NCBI GenBank assembly: GCA_038890745.1
Contig: JAWAFD010000002.1
Location: forward strand, 163,327 to 227,326
DNA length: 64,000 nucleotides
Source: Candidatus Anstonellales archaeon
GTDB lineage: Archaea; Micrarchaeota; Micrarchaeia; Anstonellales; J096
Direction of reading: 5' to 3'
This document shows, piece after piece, positions 11,483-59,745 of this stretch (its first letter is position 1; the number at the start of each line of letters is the position of its first letter). The notes under the pieces were generated by a model. That model worked only from the letters and a program-made list of their open reading frames with translations, ran no database searches and had not been told where the DNA came from. The position numbers and the translations under genes were made by a program.

Positions 11483-11510
11483 ACTTTCTACTACAGCAAT
11501 AGGGGGAGAG

Positions 11511-23393: not shown

Positions 23394-23444
23394 AGTTCTG
23401 CTAAAAGGGAAAGATTTTTATATTTTTTTCCCTATTAATTGTAC

Positions 23445-28449: not shown

Positions 28450-28503
28450 GTCGAAAAAATGAACAAAAATATTTGAATTCTGTCCAAAATTTCGACAACT
28501 TTT
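28450..28503. repeat. 54-bp direct repeat, left copy (GTCGAAAAAATGAACAAAAATATTTGAATTCTGTCCAAAATTTCGACAACTTTT)
   Basis: It is perfectly identical to 29741-29794. Its ends form a 7-bp inverted repeat (GTCGAAA / TTTCGAC). Confidence 0.95.
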
Positions 28504-28529
28504 TAAACCTTTCCCCATCCAAATCTCTC

Positions 28530-43504: not shown

Positions 43505-43542
43505 ACGAAACCTTTATTATTCTTATCTCGGAATTCTTAACG

Positions 43543-46500
43543 ATGTCCATAAGGGTTTTGCGTTTTGCGTTTGCACTATTTCTACTTTTATCTATCTTCA
43601 ACGCTGTTGATCTGAGTACCTGCGGTTCTCTCTCTTCAAATACCTACTACGAAGTAACTCAAGACCTTAATACTGGAGATTCCCAGACACCATGCCTTGT
43701 TGCATACGGCGTGTCTAATGTTGTGGTAAATTTGAAAGGGTATTCTGTTAGAGGAATAAAAATACAAAACTCTGCAAATAACATTACAATAGAAAACGGT
43801 TCATTAGCTCTTCCCGGTAATTATTTCGGATCTTTTGCTTACCTTAAAATATATATCCGCGATTCTTCAAATATTACTATAAAAAACGTTTCCCACTATG
43901 CCTATTGTACATCCCCGGGATGTAGCGGCCCGGAGATAGCCAATTCAATGAATGTTTATTTCTACGAAGTTTCCTCCACCCTTCCATCTGATGCAAGAGG
44001 AGGCAACCCAAGCGTTTTTTTTGGTATTCAAAACACAACAAACGCTACATTTGAACGGCTTAAGTATTCTTTCCCGGACTCTCTCGGCCACTGCACAGCC
44101 TTGGCTTGGACAGCGATTCTTATAGATTCTTCGGGTTCTGGTGCTAAAAAATCAAACAATATTGTGATAAAACAATCAGAAATAACAGGTTCTTGCAATG
44201 GAATACTTTCATATACAGAAAATTTGACGCTGTATAACAATATTATAGATACATACGACGTACAGATATGGCCGAAATATTGCAATAACAACATCACGAG
44301 CAACATGGGAAAAAACTCGCTCTACCCGATTGTTTACATGGAGCACAACTCCTCCCAAACCTATTCTCCTGGGTCAGTTTCTCAGCTTATTTTCTGCAAT
44401 ATCTCGAATTTTCAGGTCACAGGCCCAACAGCAATATACGGAGGAATTCTTCTCGTTAACTCTTCGAACAATACATTTAACGGATTCTCAACAAACACGA
44501 CATACACGGGAATAGTTTTTGACAGGAGCAAAGACAACAAGTTCTATAATGGTGGAATGCATAATGGAGTTTATGGGGTTTTGTTCTATGCAACAGATGG
44601 TGTTGCGTCCACAGGCAACTCATTTGAAAATACCTCGTCCTCTAATATCACAGACCGGGTGTTTGGAGGATGCGGAGTAAGAGGAGAGTGCGTGTGCAAT
44701 TTTTCAGTAAAAAACGCCTCTTTGAATGGATTCCCTGCTTGGTTTAATACAACAACAAACGGAATTACTGTTTCGAATGTAAACCTAAATGAGCTTACTT
44801 TCTGCGATGTTGAAAACTCTACAGTGAGCAATGTCAATATAACAAACGGGACTGGCTTTTGGAGCTTTTCAAGCGCAAACATCTTAGTTGAAAACTCAAA
44901 CATTTCCAATGCTCATTATCATAATCTTTTCTCATACCTTGATGATAACATTACAATAAGAAACAGCGATTTAAGCTATTTCAGGGTTGATCCCTCAGCA
45001 CAATGGGCATACAGCCACTCTACTATGTTTTCGCGTTCTCAAAATATCACCGTCGAAAACATAACCTCATATGAAACGAACGGTTTCGCAGTTTATATCG
45101 GAACTAATGCAAATGTTTTCAACTCAAAAATCATAAACACAAAATCTGGCGGATGCTACTACTGCAGTTTTTCCCTTGGTTTTTCAGGGACGAACGCATG
45201 GGCAGAAAACAATACCGTAATTTCAGATGAAACCAATCTCTATGGTATTGTCCTTGGGATAGCGTATAATTATTTGGGCGGAAACATAACAGCAAGGAAT
45301 AATACGATAATGGGAAAATATGTCGGCATCGCATTGAGCAATCATCCAGGATATCCCCAGCCAAACAATAATATCGTGAACATTACGAGGAATCTAATCC
45401 AAAACTCTTCCTATGGGATTATGATAAACCCGAGCACAACAAACATTACAGAAATAAGCTTCAACAGAATAGAAAATAAGATCGCATCCCGTGGAAGTAC
45501 TGCATGCATGTACTCTGTCGGCTCTTCATACAGAGGAATGAATGTATCCATATTCAACAATACAATGTACAATGCAACATATGGCTACTATGCCTCGTAT
45601 GGGATAAGAGACCATATATTCAATAATACGATATGCAATGTAAATACAGTTTTCTACCTCTACCACTCAACAGAAATATACATAGGAAACAATTCTATAT
45701 GCGATGATATATACACCCCCATAGATATAGTGAGCGATAATTCGCAGGAGTGCGCGCATGGAGTTAATTTCACAGTAAACGAAACAAACCCAGTTTATTT
45801 CAGTAACATAGATGATGTTGTTTTTGAAAACAACGACAGCATTGCGCAGATATTCTTGTGTAATGTGAGTAGAGCGCGGGTGCAAAACATCACGATGAGA
45901 AGGGAAAATGCCCAGTATGGCGTATGGGCCGTCCTCACACGATATAGCAACATTACAGATTTTAGATGTTATAACATGAACTCAAATGTGTATTGTGTTT
46001 ATTTCAAGCATTTGGATTTTGAAAATAGAGTAAAGGATTCTATCATCGTGAACAATACATATGGCATAAGGATTTCTGAAAATTCAAACACCACGCATGT
46101 CTATAACAACACCTTTGAAAACAACACCTATTCAGTTTATTTGGAAGGATACCTAAACAATATTTCAACCAACTCTTTCAAAAACCCAAAATCTGAGGGT
46201 GTAGAAGTTTATCTTTATGCCCTAAATTCAAATAATAATACAATAAGTAATAACACATTTACACAGTTAACTAATGGGTATGCTTTTAAGATCGTATATA
46301 AGTCAGCCTCCGGGAATGTTTTTGAGTGGAACACTGTTAATGGCCCGGGTGAATACTATAGCCCGATTTGGATATCCGGCCAAAGTAATACATTCAGATT
46401 TAATACACTAAACGGCACAAAAACCAGCTCTGGTTTCCTAAACAGAGCAAACGGCTCTGTTTTTTACAACAACACAATAGAAAACTTCAGTGTCGGAATA

Positions 46501-48234
46501 TATAATGACTACCGGCCAGGATGGTATGCTGGGAACAATTCTCTCATATACCACAATTTCTTTAGAAATATTACAAACTATTATGTTTGGTGGGATTCGC
46601 ACCTTACAGTATTTTTAAACACTTCAGTTTCAGGGGTTGCGCAGGGGAATTATTATGACGACATTCTAGAGTATCAAATATACGATTCTGATGATAATAG
46701 CTACTGCGACTATGGAGACCAATACCCATACGGAAACCCGCCAACTGCAAAACTTCCTGCCACCCCGCCTTGGAAGGACTATGGACCCATAATCCTAGGA
46801 GGAATATACGATCATCCTAATGGAGAGAATGAATCCGCCTATTCAGCATTCTACCTCAACAAATACATCTATGATTTGGAAAGGCACTACACTACTTCCT
46901 TTATTCGCTATAACCACTCAACCCAAGGATTAAGACTTATGGTAAAAGGCCATTTCCATTTTGGGGACGTAAACATAAGCAATGCGAGCATATACACAGG
47001 TGCTTTGGAAACTGGCGGAAACTACACAGTTATAAACGCCACCTCTGCGGCGGGAATAAACGAAACCATCTCATTTTTTGTTCCAAACTTTTTGGACCAG
47101 GGGGTTTTTGTCTGCCCGAATGCAGAATCCCCGCAGGAGCTTACTTACAACTGCGAAGGATATACCTCTTTTGACATTACAGAATGCGAGGCAGGAACAA
47201 CAAAAAATGGAATAACAGTGAATTTAATAACTTTCCTAGGTCAGGAATACTACAACATTACGCATGCTCAAAAAAGGGGAGGGGCAGGGGAGGAGATAGG
47301 TGCGAACCTTACGATATGGGACACGAGCGATAACGAGACAATTTGCCCAGGAGAAAACATTACATTTTTTGCAAACTATTCAAACGCAACTTCTGGTGAG
47401 CCAATCCTGAATGCAGACTGCAACATAAGTTTTGAGGATGGGGTTTCTGCGATGATGTGGTACAACGACTCAAGTTTGCTTTATGAATACAACAGAAGCT
47501 TTGATAACCCAGGAATATACTACTACAATGTCACATGCAATGCGACCGATTATCCAACGAGGTTTAGAGAGGACCATGCACAGGTTTTTATATGCGGGGT
47601 GTATCTCTATGGAGTAAATGTTACGGTTATTAACATAAGCAAGTATAATTATACTTATGAGGTAGGGAGATATCCTCTTAGGCCAGGAAATATTACGAAC
47701 CTTAATATAGACATGAATGTTTCTACAGAGAAATGGGCAGGCTTCTATGGCAATATCAGCAATGGAACATACTTAGTTTTAGGGGATGCGGTAGGAAATT
47801 TTATGTATAAATGGCCATGGGGAGGGGAGGAAGGAAAGGGAAGGGTTGTGTGCACAAGCACAAACGGAAGTTTGTACTTCATCAACCTTACCGGTGCTCT
47901 TGGAAGCGAGATAGATACAGCATGGAATTTCCTTCCGAACGCGGCTGATTCTGGAACGAACACATTCAACCAGCAGTGCGACATTACTTTTGGCGCGTAT
48001 ACAATACAAAATGCTGCATGCAGGCCTACAGGGTATTGGAATTTCTACACCCGTGCCCTCAAAATCTATCCGTGGCTTGGTCATAAGGACCAGATGGTAT
48101 TCTGCACAAACATCACCTCTGCAACAAGCTTTGTGGATACTCCAGTTGATTTTGAGCTTATCGTTCCTACAGAATACGGAATGGGCAGCGGCCCTCCTTA
48201 TGAAATATACTATTTCTATGTATCCATAGAGTAA
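43543..48234 (+). CDS. giant (1563 aa) secreted beta-helix surface protein ending in the WAGFYGN-type module
   Basis: The signal peptide is MSIRVLRFAFALFLLLSIFNA. Asn-rich ~22-aa rungs run throughout. The C-terminus reads ..GNITNLNIDMNVSTEKWAGFYGNISNGTYLVLGDAVGNFMYKW...MVFCTNITS...VDFELIVPTE...YEIYYFYVSIE. Confidence 0.85.
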   Translation: MSIRVLRFAFALFLLLSIFNAVDLSTCGSLSSNTYYEVTQDLNTGDSQTPCLVAYGVSNVVVNLKGYSVRGIKIQNSANNITIENGSLALPGNYFGSFAYLKIYIRDSSNITIKNVSHYAYCTSPGCSGPEIANSMNVYFYEVSSTLPSDARGGNPSVFFGIQNTTNATFERLKYSFPDSLGHCTALAWTAILIDSSGSGAKKSNNIVIKQSEITGSCNGILSYTENLTLYNNIIDTYDVQIWPKYCNNNITSNMGKNSLYPIVYMEHNSSQTYSPGSVSQLIFCNISNFQVTGPTAIYGGILLVNSSNNTFNGFSTNTTYTGIVFDRSKDNKFYNGGMHNGVYGVLFYATDGVASTGNSFENTSSSNITDRVFGGCGVRGECVCNFSVKNASLNGFPAWFNTTTNGITVSNVNLNELTFCDVENSTVSNVNITNGTGFWSFSSANILVENSNISNAHYHNLFSYLDDNITIRNSDLSYFRVDPSAQWAYSHSTMFSRSQNITVENITSYETNGFAVYIGTNANVFNSKIINTKSGGCYYCSFSLGFSGTNAWAENNTVISDETNLYGIVLGIAYNYLGGNITARNNTIMGKYVGIALSNHPGYPQPNNNIVNITRNLIQNSSYGIMINPSTTNITEISFNRIENKIASRGSTACMYSVGSSYRGMNVSIFNNTMYNATYGYYASYGIRDHIFNNTICNVNTVFYLYHSTEIYIGNNSICDDIYTPIDIVSDNSQECAHGVNFTVNETNPVYFSNIDDVVFENNDSIAQIFLCNVSRARVQNITMRRENAQYGVWAVLTRYSNITDFRCYNMNSNVYCVYFKHLDFENRVKDSIIVNNTYGIRISENSNTTHVYNNTFENNTYSVYLEGYLNNISTNSFKNPKSEGVEVYLYALNSNNNTISNNTFTQLTNGYAFKIVYKSASGNVFEWNTVNGPGEYYSPIWISGQSNTFRFNTLNGTKTSSGFLNRANGSVFYNNTIENFSVGIYNDYRPGWYAGNNSLIYHNFFRNITNYYVWWDSHLTVFLNTSVSGVAQGNYYDDILEYQIYDSDDNSYCDYGDQYPYGNPPTAKLPATPPWKDYGPIILGGIYDHPNGENESAYSAFYLNKYIYDLERHYTTSFIRYNHSTQGLRLMVKGHFHFGDVNISNASIYTGALETGGNYTVINATSAAGINETISFFVPNFLDQGVFVCPNAESPQELTYNCEGYTSFDITECEAGTTKNGITVNLITFLGQEYYNITHAQKRGGAGEEIGANLTIWDTSDNETICPGENITFFANYSNATSGEPILNADCNISFEDGVSAMMWYNDSSLLYEYNRSFDNPGIYYYNVTCNATDYPTRFREDHAQVFICGVYLYGVNVTVINISKYNYTYEVGRYPLRPGNITNLNIDMNVSTEKWAGFYGNISNGTYLVLGDAVGNFMYKWPWGGEEGKGRVVCTSTNGSLYFINLTGALGSEIDTAWNFLPNAADSGTNTFNQQCDITFGAYTIQNAACRPTGYWNFYTRALKIYPWLGHKDQMVFCTNITSATSFVDTPVDFELIVPTEYGMGSGPPYEIYYFYVSIE

Positions 48235-48274
48235 CCATAATGTTTAAAAACATATGTATACATAAAAAATAACC

Positions 48275-49135
48275 ATGAAATGGGGTAAGAAGATTGCGCT
48301 CGCTGCTGGAATTACTCTTCCTGCAATTGGTTTAGGAGCAAAAGAAGTAAAAGCAGATCCGTTTCCAGGTCAACCCCTCCAAGTTTCACACTTGGATCAA
48401 CAGGCGATGGATTATCTTTATGGATTACGCCTTCCAATGATTATAGATAGTTTAAACGAAAGAATAACCATTTACAAGAAAATGTTACAGTCCGCCGAAA
48501 ATAGATACCCTGACCTTACTTTTATTTCTCGCATCCTCTCCCAAAGTGGAGTTGCCATGGACCGCATAGGAGACCAATCCACTTTAATAACAGGAGTAAC
48601 TTCAACACCAACAACAGCAATTGTTTCAGTAATGGATATTCTAGATATAAATAGTTCTGGTGTTGTTCAAGGCGTGAAGTTAAGACCAGAATATCGCAAG
48701 AAAGCAGTTTGGCTTTTCGGAGAGACAGAGGTATGCGAATTAGAGAACGCCCTCTCCAAACTTTTCACAAATACCATGGACGAGTACAGAGTTGATTATA
48801 TAAGTCCGGGAGGGACGAGTAAGGGCCAGTCATCTTCCACTGTTCCAAAATGGTTAGATGCTCTTGATGGAAAGTATGTTTACATGCTTGTTAAAATAGT
48901 TATGTTGGTTAATGGAATTAAACCGGAAGATGTTGCTGCTTACAGTAAAGACCTTGATACTGCGTATAAAGAGATTCTATGGTTAATGTTTCAGATCAAT
49001 TGCGCGACCAAGGCAAAGAGTTTGGCAGAATGGCTATCAGAACACGGCGCTGACCCAAATATTCCATACGAAATAAAAATGCAAAAGTATGATGAATTAA
49101 AAATATTACTTAAACAGCTGGGGATATACATCTAG
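48275..49135 (+). CDS. secreted hypothetical protein (286 aa)
   Basis: The signal peptide is MKWGKKIALAAGITLPAIGLGAKEVKA. The protein is not Asn/sequon-rich, unlike its neighbours. A TATA-like GTTTAAAAAC lies at 48242-48251. Confidence 0.7.
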   Translation: MKWGKKIALAAGITLPAIGLGAKEVKADPFPGQPLQVSHLDQQAMDYLYGLRLPMIIDSLNERITIYKKMLQSAENRYPDLTFISRILSQSGVAMDRIGDQSTLITGVTSTPTTAIVSVMDILDINSSGVVQGVKLRPEYRKKAVWLFGETEVCELENALSKLFTNTMDEYRVDYISPGGTSKGQSSSTVPKWLDALDGKYVYMLVKIVMLVNGIKPEDVAAYSKDLDTAYKEILWLMFQINCATKAKSLAEWLSEHGADPNIPYEIKMQKYDELKILLKQLGIYI

Positions 49136-49155
49136 TTCCCTCTTTTTTCTTTTTT
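49136..49155 (+). terminator. T-rich terminator-like tract (TTCCCTCTTTTTTCTTTTTT)
   Basis: It lies immediately after the stop at 49135 and resembles the tracts at 28411 and 61128. Confidence 0.45.
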
Positions 49156-49170
49156 ATCCATTCCCATAAG

Positions 49171-49180
49171 CTTTATAAAT
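49171..49180 (+). promoter_or_regulatory. TATA-box-like CTTTATAAAT upstream of the 1398-aa gene
   Basis: The box lies ~35 nt upstream of ATG 49212. The SD-like sequence CGGTGA is at 49202-49207. Confidence 0.4.
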
Positions 49181-49211
49181 ATTAGAAGAGTAAGTAAATA
49201 ACGGTGAAAAC

Positions 49212-52200
49212 ATGTTTGTTTTTCAGGCAGGTAAAAAAGCGCAAAAAATTAGGGAAGAGGAGATTTCGCCGAAACAGTATGTAAAAAATTTTTTAACTAC
49301 AAAAGGCGTTTCTCTTGAAGGTGCTTGGGAAGATTTTTTTAATTTTATTGAAAAAAAAGGGAAAAGTGCAGATAATCCATACCTCGATATAATAGTTGTG
49401 CAAGGAGAAGAAAAAGCAAGTAAGCTCGCAGATGCTTTAACCATTCTTCATGATTATATTGCTCAATACTTCGGTGTAGATATCAAAATAAGCCGACAAG
49501 GAAAAGTAGTTAGTTTAGAGAGAGTTGATGTTATACCTCAAAAACCGGAAATCGCAGGTGTACCTTCAAAGCTCCCTCAAGCCCCGGCCCCGGCATATCA
49601 ACCACCCCAACCCTGGGAAGAGGTTGAGAGGGCAAAGGAAGAGCTCGGAAAGAAATATCCTACTGTTGTCGAGTTCCATTCTTCGCAGGAAAAAGACTAC
49701 TGGCTCGCTCAAAGAGACCCTAACAAAGAAGAGTGGGAGGTTGTAGGCCCATTTAGAAGAGAATTTGACGATACCCTTCATGCTGAAAAGATAAGGGTTT
49801 ATGCCACGAGTATGGGTAAGTATACAGCAATCTTGTGGGTTGTCCCAGACTACATTCATGCCCTCAAGTTTTATATTGATAATGCAAGAACCTACAATGC
49901 AAAGGACGCCTCAGCAGTGAGAGATAACTTAGGAGCGCCCGGTGGTTTTCTTGCAGCTCTTTTCAATGGTCAAGCAGATTTTTTAACTCACAAAAAAAAC
50001 GGGGAACTTGTTAGGAGCTTTAAAGGTGATCCGAGAAAGTTGGCAGCATTTTTAAGCAGGGGATGGACAGGAGTGTTGTATGGTAGTGAGAAAAAGACGA
50101 TATCCAAACATTCCGAAAAAATAGACGAGCTAATGAACTTTGCTAAAGGTTCATTTGATAATTTAAGAGGAGTTCTTCCAGATGATAGTTGGGTTGCTTT
50201 TAAAGTCGGTGGAGAGGCCATGGCCGAGTATGCAATTCGACTTGGTCTCATAAACGAAAAGATAAGGGATGATTATGCGAATGCGTTTGCATTCGGAATG
50301 CTTGAGATCTCTTATTTTGAATCAGGTTTGTCACTAAAAGACTTTTTTGCTTGGTATAGAGGAGAAGATACAGGACGCATAGATCCTGATACAGTAATAA
50401 GAAATATAATCAAGGTGAAGGAAGGAAATAAATATAGGCTTTTTTACGGTGGAGAGGAGATAACCGAACCTACAGAAATTGTTTTTAGCCCGTATAAAGA
50501 TTTGATGATAACAGATAGCAGCGGTAATATGCTTGCCCATCTGCGCATTACCCATTCAAACTGGTTGTATAGGAGAAGTGCGTGGGAGGGAAATAAGGAT
50601 TACAGTGAATTAATTCAGAAAGGCGTGTTTAAAACATCCGTTGACAAATGGTCCTGGCTTGGAATAGGAGTGACCGTTATTTACCATCCAGTTAATAAAG
50701 AGATTAGTTTTGATATTGTTCCTGGGATTTCAGAAGAGGTTTGGTTGGGCGGGGTTAAACCTAAGCCAGAAGAAATTAGACCTCCAGAGGAAAGAATGGC
50801 AAACGCTTTTAGTATAGTTGGCGATAGAGAATTTCGGATTGTTGGAACCGGATTTAAAACAAACGGAAGGATAATAGCATATGGAGAAACAGATATAAAA
50901 GATTTGAGGGATGATCCTAATTTCTCTCTTAACTATATCGCATATTCTTCTCCTCTCCCAAAACAGGAGATGTGGTTCCCCGGGTTAAGAGGAAAGAAGG
51001 AGAGGTATGTTGCGTATATTCTCCTTCCGGCTGGAGAAAGCATTCAAGACCGACTACCTTCCTGGATTAAAAAGTGTGAGAGTGGGATACAAAATGGAGC
51101 CTTTGTTTATGAGGATTACAGGTATGATCTCATTCTTACTACAAAGGACGGAAAACAGATGAACGTTCTACCGGGTGTTTCTGTAAACCTGATACAAAAG
51201 GGTCTTAAGCCAGAGTACCTCCAGTATGAAATTAATCCAGACGGTACTTATGATATTTATGTTTGCTTAAATAAAGATGGAGAGATAGTTAGACGGCCAG
51301 ACCCTGAGAAAATTAGGAATAGAGAGTATTACATTGAGACAATAGCTACGGGGGTTAACACAGGAGGCTCTGAAATTGTGAGCGCTTCGTTTGTAGATAA
51401 TAAAAGAACCGGGCTTGATATATATGCGGTTGTTAAATTAGACAAGGATGGCACAGCAACCCTTCAAGACGCTGCAAGGATCGTTGGCCATGAGTTTGAC
51501 TACAAATGGTTGGATGAAAAAGGATACAGAAAAGTGTATCTTGGTTCTCTTCCATCCTCCAGGGTTGTGGAAACCGCACCCGGGGAAAAATCATACCATA
51601 TTCTCCCAACAGATATTAGTTCAGACTGGCAACCCCTTCTAGTTGGAACGATTCCTCCTGAATTGATAAGAGTAAGCGCAGATGGAAAAACAGGAGAATT
51701 TACAGCAGAACTTTATCCGACTGTTGCGGTGCAGAAAGGAATAAAGAACTATTATGTAACCTACTACATGAATTATAAGGGGAAGCCGCCTGTTTCTTTT
51801 GATTTTGCTGGCCTGCCTGTTTCTGTTGAGACGCTCGCAAGTAAAGACGCCGAAACAAGAAAAGCCGCGATAAGCCAACTTCTTTCACTCTCTCAGAATC
51901 CAATGTCTTCTACTGAAGCATCAGACTATATGGGACTTATTTCAGAAGTAGAAGGAAAATGGAGGGACAGGCTTGATGAGGAAGATAGGAAAAACTTGGC
52001 AGCAGCAAGGGCTAACTTTGAAAGATACTCTGGAATAGCAAGAGGAGGAGAGATTGCGGCGGGGGTGAGCGAGAGACTACCTACGCTTCCGGAGCCGCAG
52101 TATACACTCTCTATGAATCAACAGAGTATTACTGGACTTACCACTGCAGATATTCCTTCGCAGTGGGATAGGATATGGGGGATTCAGGATGATCAAGCAA

Positions 52201-53408
52201 AACTCCACCGATTTAGCGAAGCTGTTCATGCTCTTGGGGTAGGATTAATGTTAGATGTTGGGGAAGAGCGAGAAAAAGCAAAACAGTTTGGTTATGAATT
52301 TTTAAAGGCCTTCATCCCAAACCCAAAACCCTCATTTGAGGACCTTACCGAGGAGGAAAAAAATGCTATTGCTGCGATGGTTTATGGAAAAGACTATGGG
52401 CAGCTTGGCTCTGTTCAGAAAACAAATGTTGCGAAGATCTATTCATTGCTGATAAATGGGAATATAAAAGAGCTGTTCGAAACACCGGGTTTAATAGAGG
52501 CTACAAATTTAGAAGGTATAGTAGATCCGATTTCTAAGATGGAATTTCTTTCTAAAATAAATGAGAATGTTATGAGTGTGGGGGACATTATTCTTGATTG
52601 GAGAAGTGGTGGTACTGCTGCAGGCGAGCTCGGTGCTCCGACAGCCGGGTTGGCTGCAAACCTAGGTGCTTTTGTTGACTTTATAGATACAGAGTATAAA
52701 CGCGGGAGATTGCAGCTTATTAAAGTTGAAGAAACAGACCCAGAAACTGGAAAGAAAGAAATACACTATGCTTACGGTGGGCTTGATATTGCTGATAAAA
52801 GAAGGCTTGGTATAGAACCAAGACTGAGAGGAGAGATAACAGCACGTCTTCCAAGCGGCATTAAAGCAACCATAAAAGGCGGAGTTGGATACAGAGCAGA
52901 ATTTGAAAAGGGTGAGCGAGGAAGAGGGAGATGGACTTCAAATGTAGGGATGGAGATTGGAGACATACGAATTCCACATACTAATGTTGTTCTTTTAATA
53001 AATGGCGATTGGGGAAAGATACCTGCTCTTCGCGGTATGGAGGAACGCACTACTGTGAGCGGAACTGCATCCTTTAATCTTTTAGTTCCCCACTCAGCAA
53101 CGATAGGTTTGAGAAGAAGCGTATACACACGTGAGGGCGAGGTGGAAGAACTTTCTCCTACTGGAGTGGAAAGGACAGGTTTTGCAGTACTTACATCCAC
53201 GCTATACGAGACTCCTGAAGGTAGGAAGCTCTCATCCAATCTCTCTGCTGAGGTTGATAGATTGTCAAGGCAAGGCTGGAAGAGATGGGAGATTGGAGGG
53301 GAGTATCAGGTTGCTCCTGGTAAAACATTCTATGCGGGGATTGGACGTGTCAACACACAGCTAGGAATATATAATACTTTTAGGATTGGTTTTCGATTGA
53401 GGATCTGA
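49212..53408 (+). CDS. large (1398 aa) hypothetical protein with no N-terminal signal peptide and a C-terminal ~210-aa amphipathic beta-hairpin region
   Basis: An uninterrupted ORF with an SD. The N-terminus MFVFQAGKKAQKIREEE is hydrophilic. The C-terminus (~52780-53405) shows alternating hydrophobic/polar strands joined by short G/P/E turns and ends ..KTFYAGIGRVNTQLGIYNTFRIGFRLRI. No family recognised. Confidence 0.8.
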   Translation: MFVFQAGKKAQKIREEEISPKQYVKNFLTTKGVSLEGAWEDFFNFIEKKGKSADNPYLDIIVVQGEEKASKLADALTILHDYIAQYFGVDIKISRQGKVVSLERVDVIPQKPEIAGVPSKLPQAPAPAYQPPQPWEEVERAKEELGKKYPTVVEFHSSQEKDYWLAQRDPNKEEWEVVGPFRREFDDTLHAEKIRVYATSMGKYTAILWVVPDYIHALKFYIDNARTYNAKDASAVRDNLGAPGGFLAALFNGQADFLTHKKNGELVRSFKGDPRKLAAFLSRGWTGVLYGSEKKTISKHSEKIDELMNFAKGSFDNLRGVLPDDSWVAFKVGGEAMAEYAIRLGLINEKIRDDYANAFAFGMLEISYFESGLSLKDFFAWYRGEDTGRIDPDTVIRNIIKVKEGNKYRLFYGGEEITEPTEIVFSPYKDLMITDSSGNMLAHLRITHSNWLYRRSAWEGNKDYSELIQKGVFKTSVDKWSWLGIGVTVIYHPVNKEISFDIVPGISEEVWLGGVKPKPEEIRPPEERMANAFSIVGDREFRIVGTGFKTNGRIIAYGETDIKDLRDDPNFSLNYIAYSSPLPKQEMWFPGLRGKKERYVAYILLPAGESIQDRLPSWIKKCESGIQNGAFVYEDYRYDLILTTKDGKQMNVLPGVSVNLIQKGLKPEYLQYEINPDGTYDIYVCLNKDGEIVRRPDPEKIRNREYYIETIATGVNTGGSEIVSASFVDNKRTGLDIYAVVKLDKDGTATLQDAARIVGHEFDYKWLDEKGYRKVYLGSLPSSRVVETAPGEKSYHILPTDISSDWQPLLVGTIPPELIRVSADGKTGEFTAELYPTVAVQKGIKNYYVTYYMNYKGKPPVSFDFAGLPVSVETLASKDAETRKAAISQLLSLSQNPMSSTEASDYMGLISEVEGKWRDRLDEEDRKNLAAARANFERYSGIARGGEIAAGVSERLPTLPEPQYTLSMNQQSITGLTTADIPSQWDRIWGIQDDQAKLHRFSEAVHALGVGLMLDVGEEREKAKQFGYEFLKAFIPNPKPSFEDLTEEEKNAIAAMVYGKDYGQLGSVQKTNVAKIYSLLINGNIKELFETPGLIEATNLEGIVDPISKMEFLSKINENVMSVGDIILDWRSGGTAAGELGAPTAGLAANLGAFVDFIDTEYKRGRLQLIKVEETDPETGKKEIHYAYGGLDIADKRRLGIEPRLRGEITARLPSGIKATIKGGVGYRAEFEKGERGRGRWTSNVGMEIGDIRIPHTNVVLLINGDWGKIPALRGMEERTTVSGTASFNLLVPHSATIGLRRSVYTREGEVEELSPTGVERTGFAVLTSTLYETPEGRKLSSNLSAEVDRLSRQGWKRWEIGGEYQVAPGKTFYAGIGRVNTQLGIYNTFRIGFRLRI

Positions 53409-53412
53409 AAAC

Positions 53413-55212
53413 ATGAGAAATTTGCACATCTTAATATTGCTTTTTCTTCTTTTGCTTTCTCTTTCTTTTAGTTCAAAAACTTCAGATACTACAGTTTCTA
53501 CATCGCTTTACAAATGCAACACTGTAGAAAGTAGTTATTCAGTAAACACAAAACTCTATTTTAAAAATGTTTTCAAGGTTTCACCAGAAAGCGGCGTCGT
53601 GGTTTTGGACCCGGGGGAGGGAGGCACGCAATCAGACTTAGGAGATAATGCCGTAATCTGTCCAGGTAAAGTTACCCTCTCAAGCAAGGTGGATGGGGAA
53701 TATGCTCATGGATCTCAATGGAGCGCAACTGTTGATGTTTTATCTGGTGATGACTCTGGCTATGCTGACTACAATCAGGTATCGCCCGGAAGGTTTAAGT
53801 TTTCTTCAAATTTGTATCAGGACTACTACACCGCAACATGGGAATATGGCATTATTCCTGATTTCAATAGAGTAAACGAAAAGGTGAAATTTTGCTGGAA
53901 AATAAACGACTGTACAGATGATACTACAAAAGGTGGGAGCGGGGGCGCGGTTAAATCAAAAATTAAGTTTTCTGCAGGTAGTCAAACCTATGAGACACCA
54001 TGGCTAGAAAGTGATTCTTCTTCTTGGACGGTTTCTCTTAGTGAAGGTTCATATGAACTAAGCTCTGTTTTGAGTATAAATGGAGCAGTAATTGGAATAG
54101 CTCGGGACAATACACAAAATGATAATTATGATAGCACACATTTTTTTGCATTTACAAAGTTGGGTTTTTGTAATGATGACGGCGGTGCGTTCTCTACTTC
54201 CCTTCCTAAGGCCAGCATCCGCATACAAGTCCTTAACGCCAACGATGTGAGTATGGAGCTTGTCTCGCGACAACCCGGTGATCCAGTCCCGCTTCCAACA
54301 GACATGACAATCGTGGTAAAGAATACAGGGCCCATTTCAATAAAAGTTACTTCAGCATCCATAACGCCAGGCTATTCGATTAGAGAAATCTCAGGGTTTG
54401 GCGAAGAGATTCAAGCTGGCCATCAGCACACCATTAAGGTTCATCTTGAAGCAACCCAAACCCCTCCACCAGCGTCCGGAACGATAACTCTTAAATACCA
54501 GTCAGTTGGACCGACATGCGATGGAACAGTTAAAACAAAAGACCTTAACTTTGGAATAAGCACTGAAGTAGGAAAGCCAGACCTTTCCCCCAAAATAACC
54601 TGGCGCCTTCCCTTACCTTTCTACGAGGGTGATGCTGCTGGGATCACAATACATGACTGCAACCAACTCATTAAAGCAGGAGCGCACGACTCAACCTATT
54701 CCATCAAAACCAATGATGGCAATAATATTATAAAAGAGGAAACGGTTCGGGTTGGAGAGCTGGATGCTGGCAAATGCCAACAGTTATATAATGGTAATGT
54801 TGTGTGTACAAAAAACATCATTGTTACGGTTTGCAGTGATGTTAAAAATGAAGTGGATGAAGGGGGCAATGAGGGTAATAATTGCATAACAGAAACGCAG
54901 GCATGCTCTGGAGCAGAAGAAGCAGGCAACTGTACCATCACTCCATCATACGCAACCTTCATCCCGCCTTCAAGCAAATACTTTAAGCTTACCTGCGGCG
55001 CTGCTTACTGCACTGAAGCAAAATGGAAGCTTGAGGATTTAGATGAGCACGTTTCTGCTTCGGTTGATAATTATGGGGCAACGGTCTATGTTGATGCAGA
55101 GGCGCCTCCTCAAAAAGGAAGGCTCGTTGCCGATGCAAAATTGAATGAAGAAAAATACACATGTTCTTCTGTTATAGATATTATAGAGAGCGAGTGCGAG
55201 GATTATATATAA
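53413..55212 (+). CDS. secreted Cys-rich protein with CARDB-like domains
   Basis: The signal peptide is MRNLHILILLFLLLLSLSFS. It starts 4 nt after the upstream stop. ..CSDVKNEVDEGGNEGNNCITE is a CARDB-type terminal motif, and ..TIVVKNTGPISIKVTSASI.. is a beta-sandwich pattern. Confidence 0.75.
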   Translation: MRNLHILILLFLLLLSLSFSSKTSDTTVSTSLYKCNTVESSYSVNTKLYFKNVFKVSPESGVVVLDPGEGGTQSDLGDNAVICPGKVTLSSKVDGEYAHGSQWSATVDVLSGDDSGYADYNQVSPGRFKFSSNLYQDYYTATWEYGIIPDFNRVNEKVKFCWKINDCTDDTTKGGSGGAVKSKIKFSAGSQTYETPWLESDSSSWTVSLSEGSYELSSVLSINGAVIGIARDNTQNDNYDSTHFFAFTKLGFCNDDGGAFSTSLPKASIRIQVLNANDVSMELVSRQPGDPVPLPTDMTIVVKNTGPISIKVTSASITPGYSIREISGFGEEIQAGHQHTIKVHLEATQTPPPASGTITLKYQSVGPTCDGTVKTKDLNFGISTEVGKPDLSPKITWRLPLPFYEGDAAGITIHDCNQLIKAGAHDSTYSIKTNDGNNIIKEETVRVGELDAGKCQQLYNGNVVCTKNIIVTVCSDVKNEVDEGGNEGNNCITETQACSGAEEAGNCTITPSYATFIPPSSKYFKLTCGAAYCTEAKWKLEDLDEHVSASVDNYGATVYVDAEAPPQKGRLVADAKLNEEKYTCSSVIDIIESECEDYI

Positions 55213-55343: not shown

Positions 55344-56420
55344 ATGTACTTTGACCCTGAGCCAAAGGAGAGTAGAAAGGACGTTTACAACTTTGAGCAG
55401 GAATACGATGCGTTAAAAAAGTCAATACTTGGGCGGGATAGGATAATAGTCATAAAGGGACTGAGGAGAACAGGAAAAACTACGCTGATGAAGGTTGTAT
55501 ACAATGAGTTAAAAGAAGCAAAATGTTTTATAGATGGTAGGGTGGTTGAGCCAAGACAGAGCGCAGTTTATTCTGCTCTTCTAAATGCCGTCGCAGGAGC
55601 AGTAACAGAGAAGTACGTGGGTGTAAAGGCAAGAGAAATAATTGAAGCGATAAGATTTGAGTTTATGGGTATTAGCCTTTCGTTAAAAAAGGAAAGAGCA
55701 CTACGTTTCTTTTCGGATGTAGATAAGGTGCTAGAAAGAAAAAAAGAAACCCTGATCGTGTTTATAGATGAAGTGCAGAGAATAAATCCTGGAAATATAG
55801 ATGGTATAATAGCGCATGTGTTTGAACACACAAAAAACATAAAATTTGTTCTTGCCGGTTCAGAGATAGGATTACTGGATCAGGTTATAGGAACAGATGC
55901 TAAAAGCAGCTTATATGGTAGACCAAAAAAAATTATTCAAATACAAAAGTTAACTGAAGAACAGGCAAAGGGATTCCTAAGAAGTGGCTTTAAGCAAGCT
56001 GGTATAAAGATGGAAGAGGATGAAATTGAGAGAGTAGTTGAGGTTCTTGATGGGGTAATAGGATGGCTTACGTTATTTGGGTACTATGCGATTGAGGAGG
56101 GAAAGAAGACCGCACTTAAGAAGGTTATAGAAGAAGGTGCAAAAATAACTGCAGAGGAGATAGAGAATTTTTTGAGAGGGAGGGAAATCGCAAGAAGGAA
56201 ATATCTTAGGATTATGGAAGGATTGGTTGCTGGGCTAAGATGGATCGAGGTGAAAAGACTTCTCGAAGCAGAAGAAGGAAAAAAAGTAAACGATAAAATG
56301 GTTTCAAAATATCTTGCAGAACTTGAGAAATATAGTTTCATAGTAAAAACAGATGGAAGGTATTTCCTTTCAGACCCCATGATACAAAGGGGCGTGAAAT
56401 TACTTACCAATGGTAAGTAA
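55344..56420 (+). CDS. archaeal ATPase family protein (PF01637/COG1672-like P-loop NTPase with a C-terminal winged-helix-like domain)
   Basis: Walker A is IKGLRRTGKTTLM and Walker B is LIVFIDEVQ. The N-terminal FEQEYDALKK..GRDRIIV pattern is typical of the family. Confidence 0.75.
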   Translation: MYFDPEPKESRKDVYNFEQEYDALKKSILGRDRIIVIKGLRRTGKTTLMKVVYNELKEAKCFIDGRVVEPRQSAVYSALLNAVAGAVTEKYVGVKAREIIEAIRFEFMGISLSLKKERALRFFSDVDKVLERKKETLIVFIDEVQRINPGNIDGIIAHVFEHTKNIKFVLAGSEIGLLDQVIGTDAKSSLYGRPKKIIQIQKLTEEQAKGFLRSGFKQAGIKMEEDEIERVVEVLDGVIGWLTLFGYYAIEEGKKTALKKVIEEGAKITAEEIENFLRGREIARRKYLRIMEGLVAGLRWIEVKRLLEAEEGKKVNDKMVSKYLAELEKYSFIVKTDGRYFLSDPMIQRGVKLLTNGK

Positions 56421-56449: not shown

Positions 56450-56995
56450 CTACTCGCTTACGACCCCATAATAACTTACATTCATCTTTCTTATCCCTTC
56501 AAAGGTTTCCACATCGTTTCCTTCGCATGTTATAGTAAAAATAATCTCTCCCGAACAGCCCTGCATGCTTCCAGGATGTGTGAAGAGCCCGCACCTCTCG
56601 CCATGGGTGTTCAGCCAATTTACCTTTTCCTGAATGTTGCTGGTGTTCCATGTTATTCCGTAGAATGCGTACTCTATTTTTTCACTTATGTTAAATATTC
56701 TATTCTTCACCCAAACATCCCCAACCTTCACAGAGTTTCCGTTTATTTCCGTGTAGTTTAGGTTTGAGTTTAAAAAAGAAACCGGCGAGCGATAGTAATT
56801 GCAATAGAGTAACATTCCGCTCTTTCCAATGGCATAGCTCTTATTCTGAAATTCATAAACCTCTCCTAATTCAATCCTTCCGGCTTGCAGCTCATCCACA
56901 TTCTCGTGAACAAGAAGGAGAGCCAGGAGTATGGAGGCAATGATCAGAAAAATAAAAACTATCGCAGCCGGCGCGAATCCCTTTACTTTACCCAT
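56450..56995 (-). CDS. pilin-like / N-terminally anchored small secreted protein
   Basis: MGKVKGFAPAAIVFIFLIIASILLALLLV.. This is the last gene of a six-gene overlapping operon. The globular part contains Cys residues. Confidence 0.55.
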   Translation of the reverse strand: MGKVKGFAPAAIVFIFLIIASILLALLLVHENVDELQAGRIELGEVYEFQNKSYAIGKSGMLLYCNYYRSPVSFLNSNLNYTEINGNSVKVGDVWVKNRIFNISEKIEYAFYGITWNTSNIQEKVNWLNTHGERCGLFTHPGSMQGCSGEIIFTITCEGNDVETFEGIRKMNVSYYGVVSE

Positions 56996-57369
56996 ATCAC
57001 CCCATTCCCTCCATCATAAAGCTCTATCTCAAACATGATTCCATCCTTTTTCGCATTCGGAAAATAGTTTGTTTCTATGTTTATTTCTCTTTCTTTGCAT
57101 AGCGTATCAACATATACCGGAGCGCCATCCAATATTATATAATTCTCCCCCTCTGCGATGCTATCTGCAATGAGCAAAAGAATGCTCCTTCCATTATAGG
57201 TTTCTTTTTTTGCTTTTTCTATGGTTTGCAGCGCACCGATGTATTTATACGAAATCTCCATCTGCTTCTCAACTGCGCTTTCCCTTTCGGCCCCAACATA
57301 CATAAGGGCAGATGCCAAAACACCGAGTGCAACGATCCCCATCACTATACCTATTACATCATCCATCAT
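56983..57369 (-). CDS. N-terminally anchored small protein (pilin-like operon member)
   Basis: MMDDVIGIVMGIVALGVLASALMYV.. It overlaps its neighbours by 13 nt and 4 nt. Confidence 0.5.
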   Translation of the reverse strand: MMDDVIGIVMGIVALGVLASALMYVGAERESAVEKQMEISYKYIGALQTIEKAKKETYNGRSILLLIADSIAEGENYIILDGAPVYVDTLCKEREINIETNYFPNAKKDGIMFEIELYDGGNGVIWVK

Positions 57370-57818
57370 TCCAACACCCTTACCTTCCCATCCTCTTTAA
57401 TTACAAGGATATGGTGCGCTCCCGGCAAAAGCATTGCCTCGGTTGCGTTGCACGCTAAATTATAGCAAGTCTCCTCTTTGCATATTTTTTTTCCGCTTAT
57501 GTTTATTCCACTTTCCACATAAACAGTTTCAAAAATTCTTTTTTCATTTAAGCAGACAACATCCATCGCTCCCTTAACCTTTGCTACATCCTCCCTTCCA
57601 GAATGATAACCGCCGACAGAAAACTCTTTTCCTCCATACCCTAAGAATGTCCAGTTTTTTTCTGCATTTATTTTTAAAATTTGGAGGGCGTTCAGCATCT
57701 CCCTCTGTTCCCAATATTTATCATAAGCATTTACAACTAAAACATTCGCGAAGAAGACTATTGCGGCAATAAGAAAAACAAACATTACTTTTGGAAAGAT
57801 ATTCAGCTGCCCCCGCAT
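57366..57818 (-). CDS. pilin-like protein with class-III-type signal (MRGQ/LNIFPKVMFVFLIAAIVFF)
   Basis: ATG at 57818 has AGGAGAGG ~8 nt upstream. A basic leader ending in GQ is followed by a hydrophobic helix. The ORF-track start at 57842 is less likely. Confidence 0.6.
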   Translation of the reverse strand: MRGQLNIFPKVMFVFLIAAIVFFANVLVVNAYDKYWEQREMLNALQILKINAEKNWTFLGYGGKEFSVGGYHSGREDVAKVKGAMDVVCLNEKRIFETVYVESGINISGKKICKEETCYNLACNATEAMLLPGAHHILVIKEDGKVRVLE

Positions 57819-58162
57819 GTAATCCTCTCCTTTCCAGAGCAATGGACCTCCTTCGTGAAAGTAAACTCACCGCTTGCGTTTAGTTCAAGCGGGTAGGGGA
57901 AGTAGCTCTCCTGCCCATCCACACCTGCGAAAACAACCCCTTTCCCTATAAACACCTTCCCCCCATACTCAAAACTCGCATTGCTCCATCCTTTTTCATA
58001 ACTCTCCATTATCAAAAAGCTAACCTTTTTCGCAATATCATTTGCTAAAAATTTTTTCTGCTCGTTTATCTGAAAACTTATTGCGTTCCACATTATGGCA
58101 ATTACAATAAGAACAGCTACGAGAGAGCCAACATTCACTATAAAGTCGGTTGTTGCGGTCAT
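57803..58162 (-). CDS. N-terminally anchored small protein (pilin-like operon member)
   Basis: MTATTDFIVNVGSLVAVLIVIAIMW.. It has a 4-nt overlap with the upstream gene. Confidence 0.5.
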   Translation of the reverse strand: MTATTDFIVNVGSLVAVLIVIAIMWNAISFQINEQKKFLANDIAKKVSFLIMESYEKGWSNASFEYGGKVFIGKGVVFAGVDGQESYFPYPLELNASGEFTFTKEVHCSGKERITCGGS

Positions 58163-58566
58163 CCTACCATTCCTTTTAGGCTCACTACACCATCCTTCTT
58201 CTCAAAAATGAATGTATATTCGTTTTCCACACCGGCAGGAACAAAAAGCGAAGTTACATTTGTTCGACAGGTAATATTTTTGCACAACTCATTCTTTCCG
58301 CTTATGCAGAACTCATCATTATACCCGGTCATAACCAATTCCCCATAAACTTTTTTCTTAAAACTAAAACTGCTTTCGTCCGGCATGGAGCAGAAGGTCT
58401 CAAGCTTTCCGGAAAGCTCATCAAACAGTCTTTTCTGCTCATTAGAAATAAAATTTTCCTTAAAGGAGCCGAAAGCGTTCCAGTATGCCATTATCACTAT
58501 TGAAGCGAAAATGAAGCTTGCAAGGATCCATATCCACAAACTCGGCGCATCTCCTTTCATTGGCAT
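58159..58566 (-). CDS. pilin-like protein (MPMKGDAPSLWIWILASFIFASIVIMAYW)
   Basis: A short basic leader and hydrophobic helix are followed by four Cys residues in the globular part. Confidence 0.55.
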   Translation of the reverse strand: MPMKGDAPSLWIWILASFIFASIVIMAYWNAFGSFKENFISNEQKRLFDELSGKLETFCSMPDESSFSFKKKVYGELVMTGYNDEFCISGKNELCKNITCRTNVTSLFVPAGVENEYTFIFEKKDGVVSLKGMVG

Positions 58567-59126
58567 CTGAGCTCCCCTCTATCTGTTTGGGGGAAAGCGA
58601 TCGTAAACCAATGATATGCCAAAAATTTATCATGACATTCTCCGGGGTCGAGAAGCTCATTCAGCCTTGCATTCAGCGCGCTTCCGCTTACACCCAAGCC
58701 AGAATAATAAGAGCAGACTGCCTCGCTGCATTTTTTTGCATCAACATTAGGGCATTCTACAAGGATAAAGCATGGAACCCTTTTCTCGCATGCCCCAACC
58801 CCTCCGAGAGAAACCTCTGCGAAAACAGAGCTGTCCGTATAGTCGTTTTTGTCCCCATCTCCGTTTAGGTCTATCTCGTTGAATGAGGTGCAGAATTCCA
58901 CAAGGTTTTTATTGCTCATGGATTTTTGATAGTTGCTGCATTTTGTCTCGCAATTTTGAACAATTTTCTGAACAGCCATCTTCTGCTCTTGTGTGAGCTG
59001 GATTCCCTGAAGCTTCTCGCTTTCCTGAGCCATGTATTTTGTGAATATATCAAGCACTACATAAACAACAATGACCAAAACAAGCAGAACGAGCACAATC
59101 TCTAATGCCTTACTCTGTCCTTTCAT
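58557..59126 (-). CDS. pilin-like protein with a canonical archaeal class III signal (MKGQ/SKALEIVLVLLVLVIVV) and a DxNxDGD Ca-binding-like loop
   Basis: The KGQ-S...E pattern resembles EppA/PibD-type prepilin sites. The globular domain is Cys-rich and contains EIDLNGDGDKNDY. It is the first gene of the operon. Confidence 0.65.
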   Translation of the reverse strand: MKGQSKALEIVLVLLVLVIVVYVVLDIFTKYMAQESEKLQGIQLTQEQKMAVQKIVQNCETKCSNYQKSMSNKNLVEFCTSFNEIDLNGDGDKNDYTDSSVFAEVSLGGVGACEKRVPCFILVECPNVDAKKCSEAVCSYYSGLGVSGSALNARLNELLDPGECHDKFLAYHWFTIAFPQTDRGELRCQ

Positions 59127-59647: not shown

Positions 59648-59745
59648 ACAGTAGACATCAAGCAAATATTTATAATATTTGTTATCTATTTTTTTTGGGT
59701 GAGAAATTGGCCGAAAGAGAGGTTGTAGTGGAAAAGAGAGGGGGT

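Follow-up and report, generated by a model that had tools for sequence, protein, structure and literature searches.

Type Va autotransporters of bacteria, such as Ag43 (Flu) of Escherichia coli, carry a 12-stranded beta-domain at the C-terminus of a large protein, where a helix precedes about 12 amphipathic antiparallel strands. The same arrangement is found in a large protein encoded in the window, which here means the whole 64,000-nucleotide stretch of archaeal DNA that was analysed. The dyad moment of the Ag43 beta-domain (1.08) is close to that of the archaeal tail (1.05-1.23), both are high in Gly and low in Tyr, and most members of the archaeal family end in Phe, as E. coli outer-membrane proteins (OMPs) do. 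Unlike bacterial OMPs, however, the archaeal protein has no signal peptide, no sequence or profile similarity to them and no conserved terminal aromatic residue, and its host is an archaeon from an S-layer group with no known BAM. Other described systems, including CdiA-CT/CdiI, Rhs, phage tail-fibre tips with their chaperones, and IdsD/IdsE, share with this locus a conserved body, a linker and a recombining C-terminal region that is inherited with the beginning of the gene that follows it, a comparison drawn from general knowledge and not from homology. Together, the results point tentatively, with a probability of roughly 0.4, to a tail that is the polymorphic, partner-coupled specificity end of an envelope complex and not a classical outer-membrane barrel.

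The gene (49212..53408, + strand) is real and encodes a lineage-restricted orphan found in hot-spring Micrarchaeia (DPANN). ATG 49212 is the earliest start in frame, and the stop-to-stop ORF exceeds the ATG-started ORF by just 6 codons. The length of 1398 aa and the C-terminal sequence quoted in an earlier note on this DNA both agree with the translation. A TATA-like TTTATAAATA (49172-49181) lies 5' of the ATG, and GGTGA (49203-49207) ends 4 nt before it; as read from the sequence, these putatively represent the gene's own promoter and ribosome-binding site (49172..49207, +). The 11 orthologues (1366-1408 aa) all come from Micrarchaeia metagenome contigs or MAGs, from hot springs wherever the source is recorded; on the phyletic distribution that the earlier note wished to see determined, the family is thus found in a few Micrarchaeia only. 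A HMMER profile search of 1.84 billion representatives recovered nothing beyond this family.

The earlier note described the protein as lacking a signal peptide and any recognisable domain, with few Cys and few sequons, and this description holds. No match was found in Pfam, PHROG, NCBIfam, PADLOC or PDB, and there are two Cys and two sequons. There is likewise no transmembrane helix, the most hydrophobic 19-mer reaching a KD of 1.27. The N-terminus reads MFVFQAGKKAQKIREEE, and a hydrophobic h-region was sought at the N-termini of all 11 orthologues without success. No signal peptide or TM segment was detected in any of them, and their highest 19-mer KD (1.08-1.86) is never N-terminal. Across the family there are 1-4 Cys and 2-7 sequons against 5-7 expected, a chance level resembling that of the window's cytoplasmic proteins.

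Every orthologue begins with the invariant pentapeptide MF[VLI]FQ (49212..49226, +), which occurs nowhere else in the six-frame translation of 289 kb of related loci and is a candidate non-classical targeting signal. The following ~180 aa share just 24-29% identity with other clades, against 56-58% for the conserved body (aa ~186-958; 49767..52085, +), whose start was put at aa ~135 or ~186 and which ends in an invariant R-x-P-T. The history of this body is the 'backbone' history, common to the upstream gene and the C-half of the downstream protein. The C-terminal third consists, in order, of a Pro-rich linker, a variable helical region, a hairpin-helix element and a beta-meander. The hairpin-helix element (aa 1121-1189; 52572..52778, +) contains a conserved beta-hairpin, then LGAPTAGLAANLGAFVDFI, then a second hairpin, and carries the invariant G-A-P-x-x-G-L...A-F-V-x-F-I. 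LGAPTAGLAANLGAFVDFI is the protein's most hydrophobic segment (KD 1.27) and probably an amphipathic helix; a helix is predicted in this element in a low-confidence AlphaFold2 model. A local resemblance of the element to MBP is weak (E 0.07) and probably due to chance.

Gene order around the protein is invariant: its gene follows that of an exported protein of ~290 aa and precedes that of an exported, Cys-rich CARDB protein of ~590 aa. Both flanking genes encode signal peptides, consistent with the placement between secreted-protein genes given in the earlier note. The upstream partner (48275..49135, +; 286 aa) is mostly helical, has the N-terminal signal peptide or anchor MKWGKKIALAAGITLPAIGLGAKEVKA and matches no family. 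It has 12 orthologues, and wherever a contig extends far enough to reveal the following gene, an orthologue of the orphan gene lies directly 3'. The downstream partner (53413..55212, +; 599 aa) is exported, with a signal peptide, 17 Cys and a weak CARDB match; its gene starts 4 nt past the preceding stop in the window and overlaps that stop in orthologous loci. Beyond it lies a convergent type-IV-pilin-like cluster (56450..59126, −), in which six small genes were read, each encoding an N-terminal hydrophobic helix, with weak ComGE and BasB matches. In orthologous loci seven genes were called, one of them of ~162 aa. The cluster is also present in L001, L004, L009 and L015, and adjoins the trio in every locus long enough; L015 has no giant beta-helix genes and keeps the trio and pilin cluster. 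As the trio lies beside this cluster wherever a locus is long enough to tell, it belongs to an envelope or cell-contact locus.

Comparisons of cassette and backbone across ~9 lineages, all from metagenomes, show that aa ~959-1398 of the orphan protein and aa 1-~265 of its downstream neighbour behave as one polymorphic cassette (52086..54207, +) with its own history, which has been exchanged repeatedly between lineages by recombination. This conclusion draws on sliding-window breakpoints and Mantel tests. Sharp identity breakpoints occur in three independent pairs, at aa ~950-975 of the orphan protein and aa ~260-280 of the downstream protein. For instance, P0003 and P0004 share 98-100% identity over aa 1-950, falling to 34-60% past aa 960, and the downstream gene of L009 shows a switch matching this cassette change. 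The inverse case is seen between the window and strain L005, where a tract (51143-54142) is >99.3% identical and its flanks differ by 3-10%; the window assembly is a single contig with uniform 61x depth across the cassette. Distances for aa 961-end of the orphan protein and aa 1-260 of the downstream protein are strongly correlated (Mantel r 0.95-0.96, P<=0.002), as are those among backbone parts (0.78-0.91), against 0.1-0.5 for cassette versus backbone and 0.15-0.46 for the cassette versus its own N-terminal part. The N-half of the downstream protein thus goes with the cassette, and its C-half follows the backbone. At least four exchanges were counted, some between strains 98-100% identical elsewhere, and two cassette types were each found on three different backbones. 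This joint swapping of the tail and the neighbouring N-half points to a variable module for recognition in a locus of cell contact.

Divergence is unbroken over the ~2.1 kb that cover both genes, and the cassette alleles align over their full length at 27-62% identity with one architecture. Between cassette types, identity is 49-62% in the beta-domain and 31-39% in aa 961-1120; the lower variability of the beta-domain within the cassette counts against reading it as a specificity end. Adjacent segments are also co-inherited in any recombination tract, so co-variation could reflect linkage and not interaction.

The Gly-rich up-and-down beta array at the C-terminus (aa 1197-1398; 52800..53405, +) comprises ~12-13 amphipathic strands. 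Its period-2 hydrophobic moment averages 1.20, whereas 2000 shuffles gave 0.82 +/- 0.10 (z 3.9, P 0.0005) and the rest of the protein scores 0.69-0.85. The strand alternation reported in the earlier note is real, and the final strand, LGIYNTFRIGFRLRI, does have hydrophobic residues at alternate positions. What did not stand is the description of this pattern as a barrel hallmark. The alternation is not specific to membrane barrels, because a secreted, soluble Ig/CARDB-like region of the same window (aa 341-600 of the 624-aa protein at 21519..23393) scores equally high, at 1.11-1.20. Gly makes up 13.9% of the window's tail and 16-18% in other clades. The beta-meander is genuine, and both its strand pattern and its Gly content are kept across cassette types. 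Conservation is equal on its polar and hydrophobic faces (0.48 and 0.45), unlike what a simple solvent-exposed sheet would show.

Could the C-terminal ~200 aa nevertheless form a membrane-inserting beta-barrel? Such a domain, autotransporter-like or beta-pore-forming, would enter the membrane of the host or of the cell itself without Sec/BAM, with the conserved helix as plug or linker and the CARDB protein as type-specific partner. This is considered unlikely, despite several favourable features: the long amphipathic strands that, behind a conserved helix, form the very end of a large protein, the conservation of the polar face as much as the hydrophobic one, and the position of the largest tail indels at alternate strand connections. 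Composition is compatible with a barrel: tail Gly (14-18% in the family; 10.8-15.2% in E. coli OMP controls) and the share of aromatics on the hydrophobic face (0.14-0.19; 0.12-0.28 in the controls) lie within the OMP-control range and above soluble fimbrial controls. Total aromatics are 7.9-11.5%, versus 13.5-16.9% in classical OMPs and 7.6% in the Ag43 beta-domain. Eight of the 11 members end in ..GIG(V/G)EF or ..DIGVRF, that is G(V/G)(E/R)F, reminiscent of the ..YQF, ..YRF, ..YTF and ..VTF ends of E. coli OMP controls, but the window clade ends in ..FRIGFRLRI and L015 in ..GWGIGLQ, so the terminal Phe is not universal. AlphaFold2 gave a mean pLDDT of 40 for aa 211-1398 and of 32 for aa 1100-1398 (5-sequence alignment, all residues <50). 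Porins prevail in the Foldseek list for the latter low-confidence model, but at noise level (E>=0.17, TM 0.10-0.18). A gasdermin pore and alpha-hemolysin are among the non-significant Foldseek matches of a low-confidence model (E 0.9-4). The HHpred-type search against OMP and pore-forming families proposed in the earlier note found no similarity: hhalign probabilities were 0.1-1.9% against E. coli OmpA, X, W, T, F, the Ag43 beta-domain and an usher; the C-termini of five members, scanned against Pfam at E<=10, matched no OMP, CARDB or Ig family; a PDB profile search with the tail gave no OMP match at E<=10; and neither Pfam nor PDB matched pore-forming toxin families (aerolysin/ETX-MTX2, haemolysin, gasdermin). 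No Omp85 or POTRA was found among the window's proteins, and across ~130 kb of related sequence no further ORF ends in an OMP-like way. Transmembrane beta-barrels are not known from archaea. Two membranes were proposed in older work (PMC4243693), and for cultivated Micrarchaeota an S-layer and no outer membrane is reported (10.1101/2021.04.28.441871; PMC11329633). Given these S-layers and the lack of a signal peptide, OMP profile similarity, universal terminal Phe and Omp85 in the window, the suggestion in the earlier note that the tail is evidence of an outer membrane is not supported.

Somewhat less doubtful, while still improbable, is a cytoplasmic protein whose tail is an ordinary soluble beta domain that hitch-hikes by linkage, the selected element being the N-half of the partner or the helical region. 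The absence of signal peptides and TM segments from all orthologues, chance-level sequons, very low Cys and a dyad periodicity equal to that of soluble beta-sandwiches are all consistent with this. The beta-domain is also the least variable part of the cassette, and breakpoints must sit in conserved flanks whatever drives divergence. Low sequon density is no proof of cytoplasmic location, however, because the clearly exported partners are sequon-poor too, the 599-aa protein being sequon-depleted and the 286-aa protein poor in them. Divergence is continuous across both genes, and recombination inside the tail has not homogenised it; the gene is tightly spaced with that of an exported protein, always in an envelope locus; and the Pro-rich linkers and invariant N-terminal pentapeptide are left unaccounted for. 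Quite unlikely is a polymorphic effector/immunity-type or self-recognition pair, in which the C-terminal third would act as effector or determine identity, with the downstream protein as its cognate partner. The locus does combine a conserved body, a linker and a swapped, variable C-terminal region with a co-varying gene directly 3' (Mantel r 0.95), as in polymorphic toxins, and has two cassette types on three backbones. Against this, the alleles are homologous and alignable over their full length, not unrelated toxin folds; no toxin or defence family, pre-toxin or secretion-system domain was found; no orphan cassettes lie 3' of the module; and of the partner, an exported CARDB protein of 599 aa, only half varies.

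Under the preferred reading of the tail as the specificity end of an envelope complex, the C-terminal third would bind the CARDB partner at its variable N-half, and the beta-meander would serve as a docking or oligomerisation part of that end and not as a Sec/BAM-type barrel. The pair may be under diversifying or balancing selection, for example through host, kin or virus recognition, and MF[VLI]FQ might direct the signal-peptide-less protein towards its exported partner. Against contact with that partner stand the missing signal peptide, the chance-level sequons and the 1-4 Cys, which resemble the window's cytoplasmic proteins.

Soluble Ig-like and CARDB domains of archaeal surface proteins match the tail in period-2 strength, as in the window's 624-aa protein, but the tail has more Gly (14-18% versus 4-13%) and, in the low-confidence model, longer strands (12-16 residues), and five members gave no CARDB or Ig profile match at E<=10. 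Beta-pore-forming toxins and gasdermins are likewise soluble, in some cases without a signal peptide, and bring amphipathic beta-hairpins into membranes, yet they contribute one or two insertion hairpins per subunit where this protein has a whole ~12-strand meander, with Foldseek E >0.1 and no profile similarity. Compared with CdiA-CT/Rhs-type systems, the alleles have a common architecture, with 27-62% identity, and contain no toxin or fibre domain. The partner also differs from theirs, as a large exported CARDB protein that varies in its N-half alone, in an archaeal DPANN lineage.

The 1398-aa orphan protein encoded at 49212..53408 (+) is more interesting for the cassette behaviour of its region than for the periodicity of its beta-rich C-terminal tail (aa ~1197-1398). 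Sequence comparison places this tail in a polymorphic two-gene cassette. The gene itself is genuine, starting at the first ATG in frame with a TATA-like box at 49172-49181 and GGTGA 4 nt before the start. The earlier note quoted its sequence exactly and rightly described a 1398-aa ORF with no signal peptide and with few Cys and sequons (2 Cys and 2 N-x-S/T sequons). A TM helix is also lacking, the most hydrophobic 19-mer having a KD of 1.27. A split gene borrowing the upstream signal peptide was rejected because a stop and a 76-nt spacer with a TATA box intervene, an arrangement that is the same in all loci. The S-layer protein SlaA, which is of similar length, was likewise rejected, since neither a signal peptide nor sequon enrichment is present. 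An antisense ORF of 155 aa inside the tail (52772..53239 (-)), low-complexity and Ser/Pro-rich, is most likely spurious. The one metatranscriptome available from the study had no coverage at all, and so is uninformative on expression.

The family is extremely small. About nine lineages contribute its 11 full-length sequences, which share 41-45% identity with the window protein, and the homologues derive from 'Candidatus Micrarchaeia/Micrarchaeota' MAGs. All sequencing runs holding the window are hot-spring metagenomes. An initial search found four proteins, metagenome contigs added two loci, and the upstream neighbour used as query added six further loci, while two truncated orthologues were recovered via the downstream gene. 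A HMMER profile of aa 211-1398 retrieved family members alone from 1.84 billion cluster representatives, and relatives of the tail by itself were found nowhere. GTDB species representatives scanned with N-terminal patterns gave no match, and the window holds no paralogues of the N-terminal, middle or tail regions. A mobile or viral origin was rejected after searches of viral contigs and of phage and plasmid records likewise found no match. The absence of a recognisable domain held up: Pfam, PHROG, NCBIfam and PADLOC searches with the whole protein and five sub-segments of two members returned nothing reproducible, and a PDB sequence-profile search with the whole protein had no match. An MBP-like local match of the tail in the PDB profile search (E 0.07) was judged to be chance. 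The family is an orphan, unplaced by the sequence and structure methods used.

Synteny around the gene is conserved. In every locus it lies between an exported helical protein of ~290 aa and an exported Cys-rich protein of ~590 aa with a weak CARDB match (599 aa in the window, 53413..55212 (+)), the start of which overlaps the stop of the central gene or follows within a few bases. Small genes clustered in convergent orientation (56450..59126 (-)) follow this trio; the six ORFs of 119-189 aa each have an N-terminal hydrophobic helix and are type-IV-pilin-like. Their order is kept in related loci, where seven genes are called. Away from this cluster, the window also encodes a FlaI/TadA-type ATPase (7692..9848) with a 607-aa gene next to it. 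Upstream of the trio, the window encodes giant sequon-enriched beta-helix (NosD-like) surface proteins. In one related locus, L015, the beta-helix genes are absent and the trio is near DUF2207 and a FlaI/TadA-type ATPase; therefore, the constant unit is the trio plus the pilin-like cluster.

Several other genes in the region were recorded. A beta-helix (NosD/Beta_helix) surface protein of 3957 aa (31631..43504 (+)) has 242 sequons against 104 expected, and its size and presence vary among related genomes, with none upstream of the trio in L015. AAA_14/DUF4143 and ATPase_2(+MCM_C wHTH) genes occupy differing positions in otherwise syntenic loci (23439..24743, 28473..29741 and 55344..56420 in the window; 7562..8896 and 15960..17225 in L001; 6587..7888 in L017), which suggests mobile or defence-type insertions. 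A 358-aa ATPase gene matches the PADLOC candidate system PDC-S01. A 475-aa protein (59695..61122 (+)) without a family match has a TM helix at its N-terminus and is 7.8% Cys, arranged in repeated modules of the form ..YYCEG..VK..T..CE.GCE.G.C.. A 524-aa protein (9910..11484 (-)) carries PPR repeats (PF01535, E 4.8e-81, 7 repeats) and TPR-type matches; PPR proteins are mainly eukaryotic, which makes its presence in a Micrarchaeia genome unusual.

Conservation along the central protein is uneven. Other members match the window protein at 56-58% identity over the body (aa 186-960), at 14-16% over aa 961-1120 and at 27-31% over the tail. The orthologues P0003 and P0004 are nearly the same over aa 1-950 (98-100% identity) but share just 34% over aa 961-1120 and 60% over the tail. 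Comparison of loci extends this break into the next gene. For instance, L016 and L001 share 88-100% identity over the upstream gene and aa 1-945, 35-50% from aa ~961 through downstream aa ~253, and 89-100% again from downstream aa ~283. In the divergent interval L016 is closer to L007 and L004 (67-87%), and L019 and L007 show similar mosaic behaviour. L009, which carries the P0004 C-terminal sequence, has the first 260 aa of its downstream protein switched to the other type (76-79% vs 47%), while the C-half of that protein stays P0003-type (83%). The inverse pattern is seen between the window and strain L005, where a tract at 51143-54142, spanning aa 644 to downstream aa 243, is >99.3% identical and the flanks differ by 3-10%. 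Across 41543..55212 the same two sequences are 96.6% identical overall, with patchy differences (0-40 per 300 nt). This patchiness indicates frequent recombination across the whole surface-protein region, beyond the cassette.

The two halves of the cassette co-vary. Distances over aa 961 to the end correlate with those over downstream aa 1-260 at r 0.95-0.96 (P<=0.002), and with those of the protein's own N-terminal part at just 0.15-0.46. The upstream gene, aa 1-950 and downstream aa 275 to the end correlate mutually (r 0.78-0.91). These matrices confirm that the trio carries two separate histories, that of the cassette and that of the backbone. The left boundary of the cassette coincides with an invariant R-x-P-T and a Pro-rich linker. 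At least four types occur (the window type, A, B and that of L015), with A and B each on three different backbones. The beta-meander of the tail is the less variable part, with 49-62% identity between types. Assembly chimerism is unlikely because the assemblies are independent, the recombinants differ by 3-30% from their 'parents' throughout, and depth on the window contig is uniform at 61x across the cassette.

The tail had been proposed to bear the hallmark of outer-membrane barrels. The alternation of hydrophobic and polar residues in its strands is real: the last ~200 residues differ in composition from the rest of the protein (Gly 13.9%, Arg 11.9%), and their mean period-2 hydrophobic moment of 1.20 exceeds both the 0.69-0.85 of other parts of the protein and the value for shuffled sequences (0.82 +/- 0.10; z 3.9, P 0.0005). 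However, the pattern is not barrel-specific, because soluble Ig/CARDB controls in the window score similarly. The dyad moment is 1.11-1.20 in the Ig/CARDB-like region of a secreted 624-aa protein and ~1.07 in the downstream neighbour's CARDB region, and ordinary soluble beta-sandwiches share the pattern too. Among tails of the family the dyad moment is 1.05-1.23, compared with 0.80-1.08 in OMP barrels and 0.74-1.04 in soluble fimbrial/chaperone proteins, both fetched from E. coli K-12 as controls, and 0.97-1.11 in archaeal CARDB/Ig regions. The +10 charge of the window tail was dropped as a functional feature along with its Arg-richness, as other clades have -1 to -3. Conservation of the hydrophobic and polar strand faces is equal (0.45 vs 0.48, P 0.64), separates neither model and was also set aside.

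A true membrane-inserting barrel or pore is unlikely. In its favour, the tails contain 13.9-17.8% Gly (10.8-15.2% in classical E. coli barrels, 8.6% in the usher, 6-11% in soluble fimbrial/chaperone proteins), and aromatics make up 0.14-0.19 of the hydrophobic face (0.12-0.28 in E. coli OMP barrels, 0-0.10 in soluble fimbrial/chaperone proteins). In addition, eight of the 11 members end in ..GIG(V/G)EF or ..DIGVRF, resembling OMP C-termini and found in no other ORF of the related sequence; the exceptions are the window clade (..RLRI) and L015 (..GLQ). Total aromatics are 7.9-11.5% in the tails, close to the Ag43 beta-domain (7.6%), and both are below the 13.5-16.9% of classical E. coli OMPs. 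When the tail family was compared with E. coli OMPs and soluble controls by hhalign, probabilities were <2% throughout. AlphaFold2 with shallow alignments reached mean pLDDT 40 for aa 211-1398 (tail below 30) and 32 for aa 1100-1398, so tertiary information was unusable; at this low pLDDT, the predicted secondary structure of the tail is a run of 12-16-residue hairpins. None of three Foldseek searches was significant. The tail model matched mostly porins and other OMPs (E at least 0.17, probability at most 0.25, TM 0.10-0.18, rmsd ~20 Å), which is noise from local hairpin states and composition, and the whole-protein model had no match in the PDB or a viral library. The results do not support a classical Sec/BAM-type OMP. 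ARMAN/Micrarchaeota were once proposed to have two membranes (PMC4243693). The suggestion that the tail is evidence of an outer membrane finds no support in a protein with no signal peptide and hhalign probabilities this low, from a lineage in which two cultivated representatives were shown to have an S-layer (10.1101/2021.04.28.441871; PMC11329633).

What most weakens the reading of the trio as a recognition complex is that the protein lacks an export signal. Its first five residues, MF[VLI]FQ (49212..49226), are invariant at all orthologue N-termini, the following ~180 aa being just 24-29% identical between the window and other clades, and 289 kb of related sequence contain no further copy of the motif. 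It may serve as a targeting or processing signal. Sequons in the family are at chance (2-7 observed vs 5-7 expected), those of the 599-aa exported partner are depleted (1-3 vs ~6 expected from composition, in the window, L001, L004 and L007), and those of neighbouring beta-helix surface proteins are enriched 2.4-fold. Depletion was dropped as a sign of export, as only the partner shows it. The protein thus looks cytoplasmic in composition, yet its clearly exported partners are likewise sequon-poor. That it is cytoplasmic, with a tail that hitch-hikes with a selected neighbour, is somewhat unlikely.

Under the most economical reading, the C-terminal third would bind the exported CARDB protein through the latter's variable N-half. 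The pair would make up the variable end of an envelope or cell-contact complex encoded beside the pilin-like genes, presumably outside the cell. The Gly-rich meander may be a structural docking or oligomerisation part, and the cassette may be under selection by host, kin or virus. Co-variation of the two halves would also suit an effector/immunity-like pair, which seems highly improbable. A bolder version, in which the tail is a membrane-inserting beta-barrel delivered independently of Sec (possibly through MF[VLI]FQ or the neighbouring pilus-like machinery) and acts as pore or anchor of a DPANN episymbiont host-contact apparatus, with the cassette of helical region, barrel and partner N-half setting host or kin specificity, is decidedly improbable. 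To our knowledge, such a barrel would be the first in an archaeon. It would also be relevant to the long-standing dispute over whether ARMAN/Micrarchaeota have a second membrane, and to the question of whether beta-barrel membrane proteins occur beyond bacteria and organelles. Were the tail a soluble docking domain instead, it would still represent an orphan fold family, one that sequence and structure methods alike failed to place.

Host recognition and connection in DPANN archaea are largely unknown at the molecular level, and the three-gene module offers a concrete candidate. Determinants of specificity or recognition usually show up in this way, as a well-delimited, polymorphic and repeatedly exchanged part, here the tail and the front half of its partner. 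Cassettes of this kind in bacteria and phages denote specificity modules with cooperating halves, including toxin tips with immunity proteins, tail-fibre tips with chaperones, and identity pairs, which the cassette described here resembles by analogy rather than homology.
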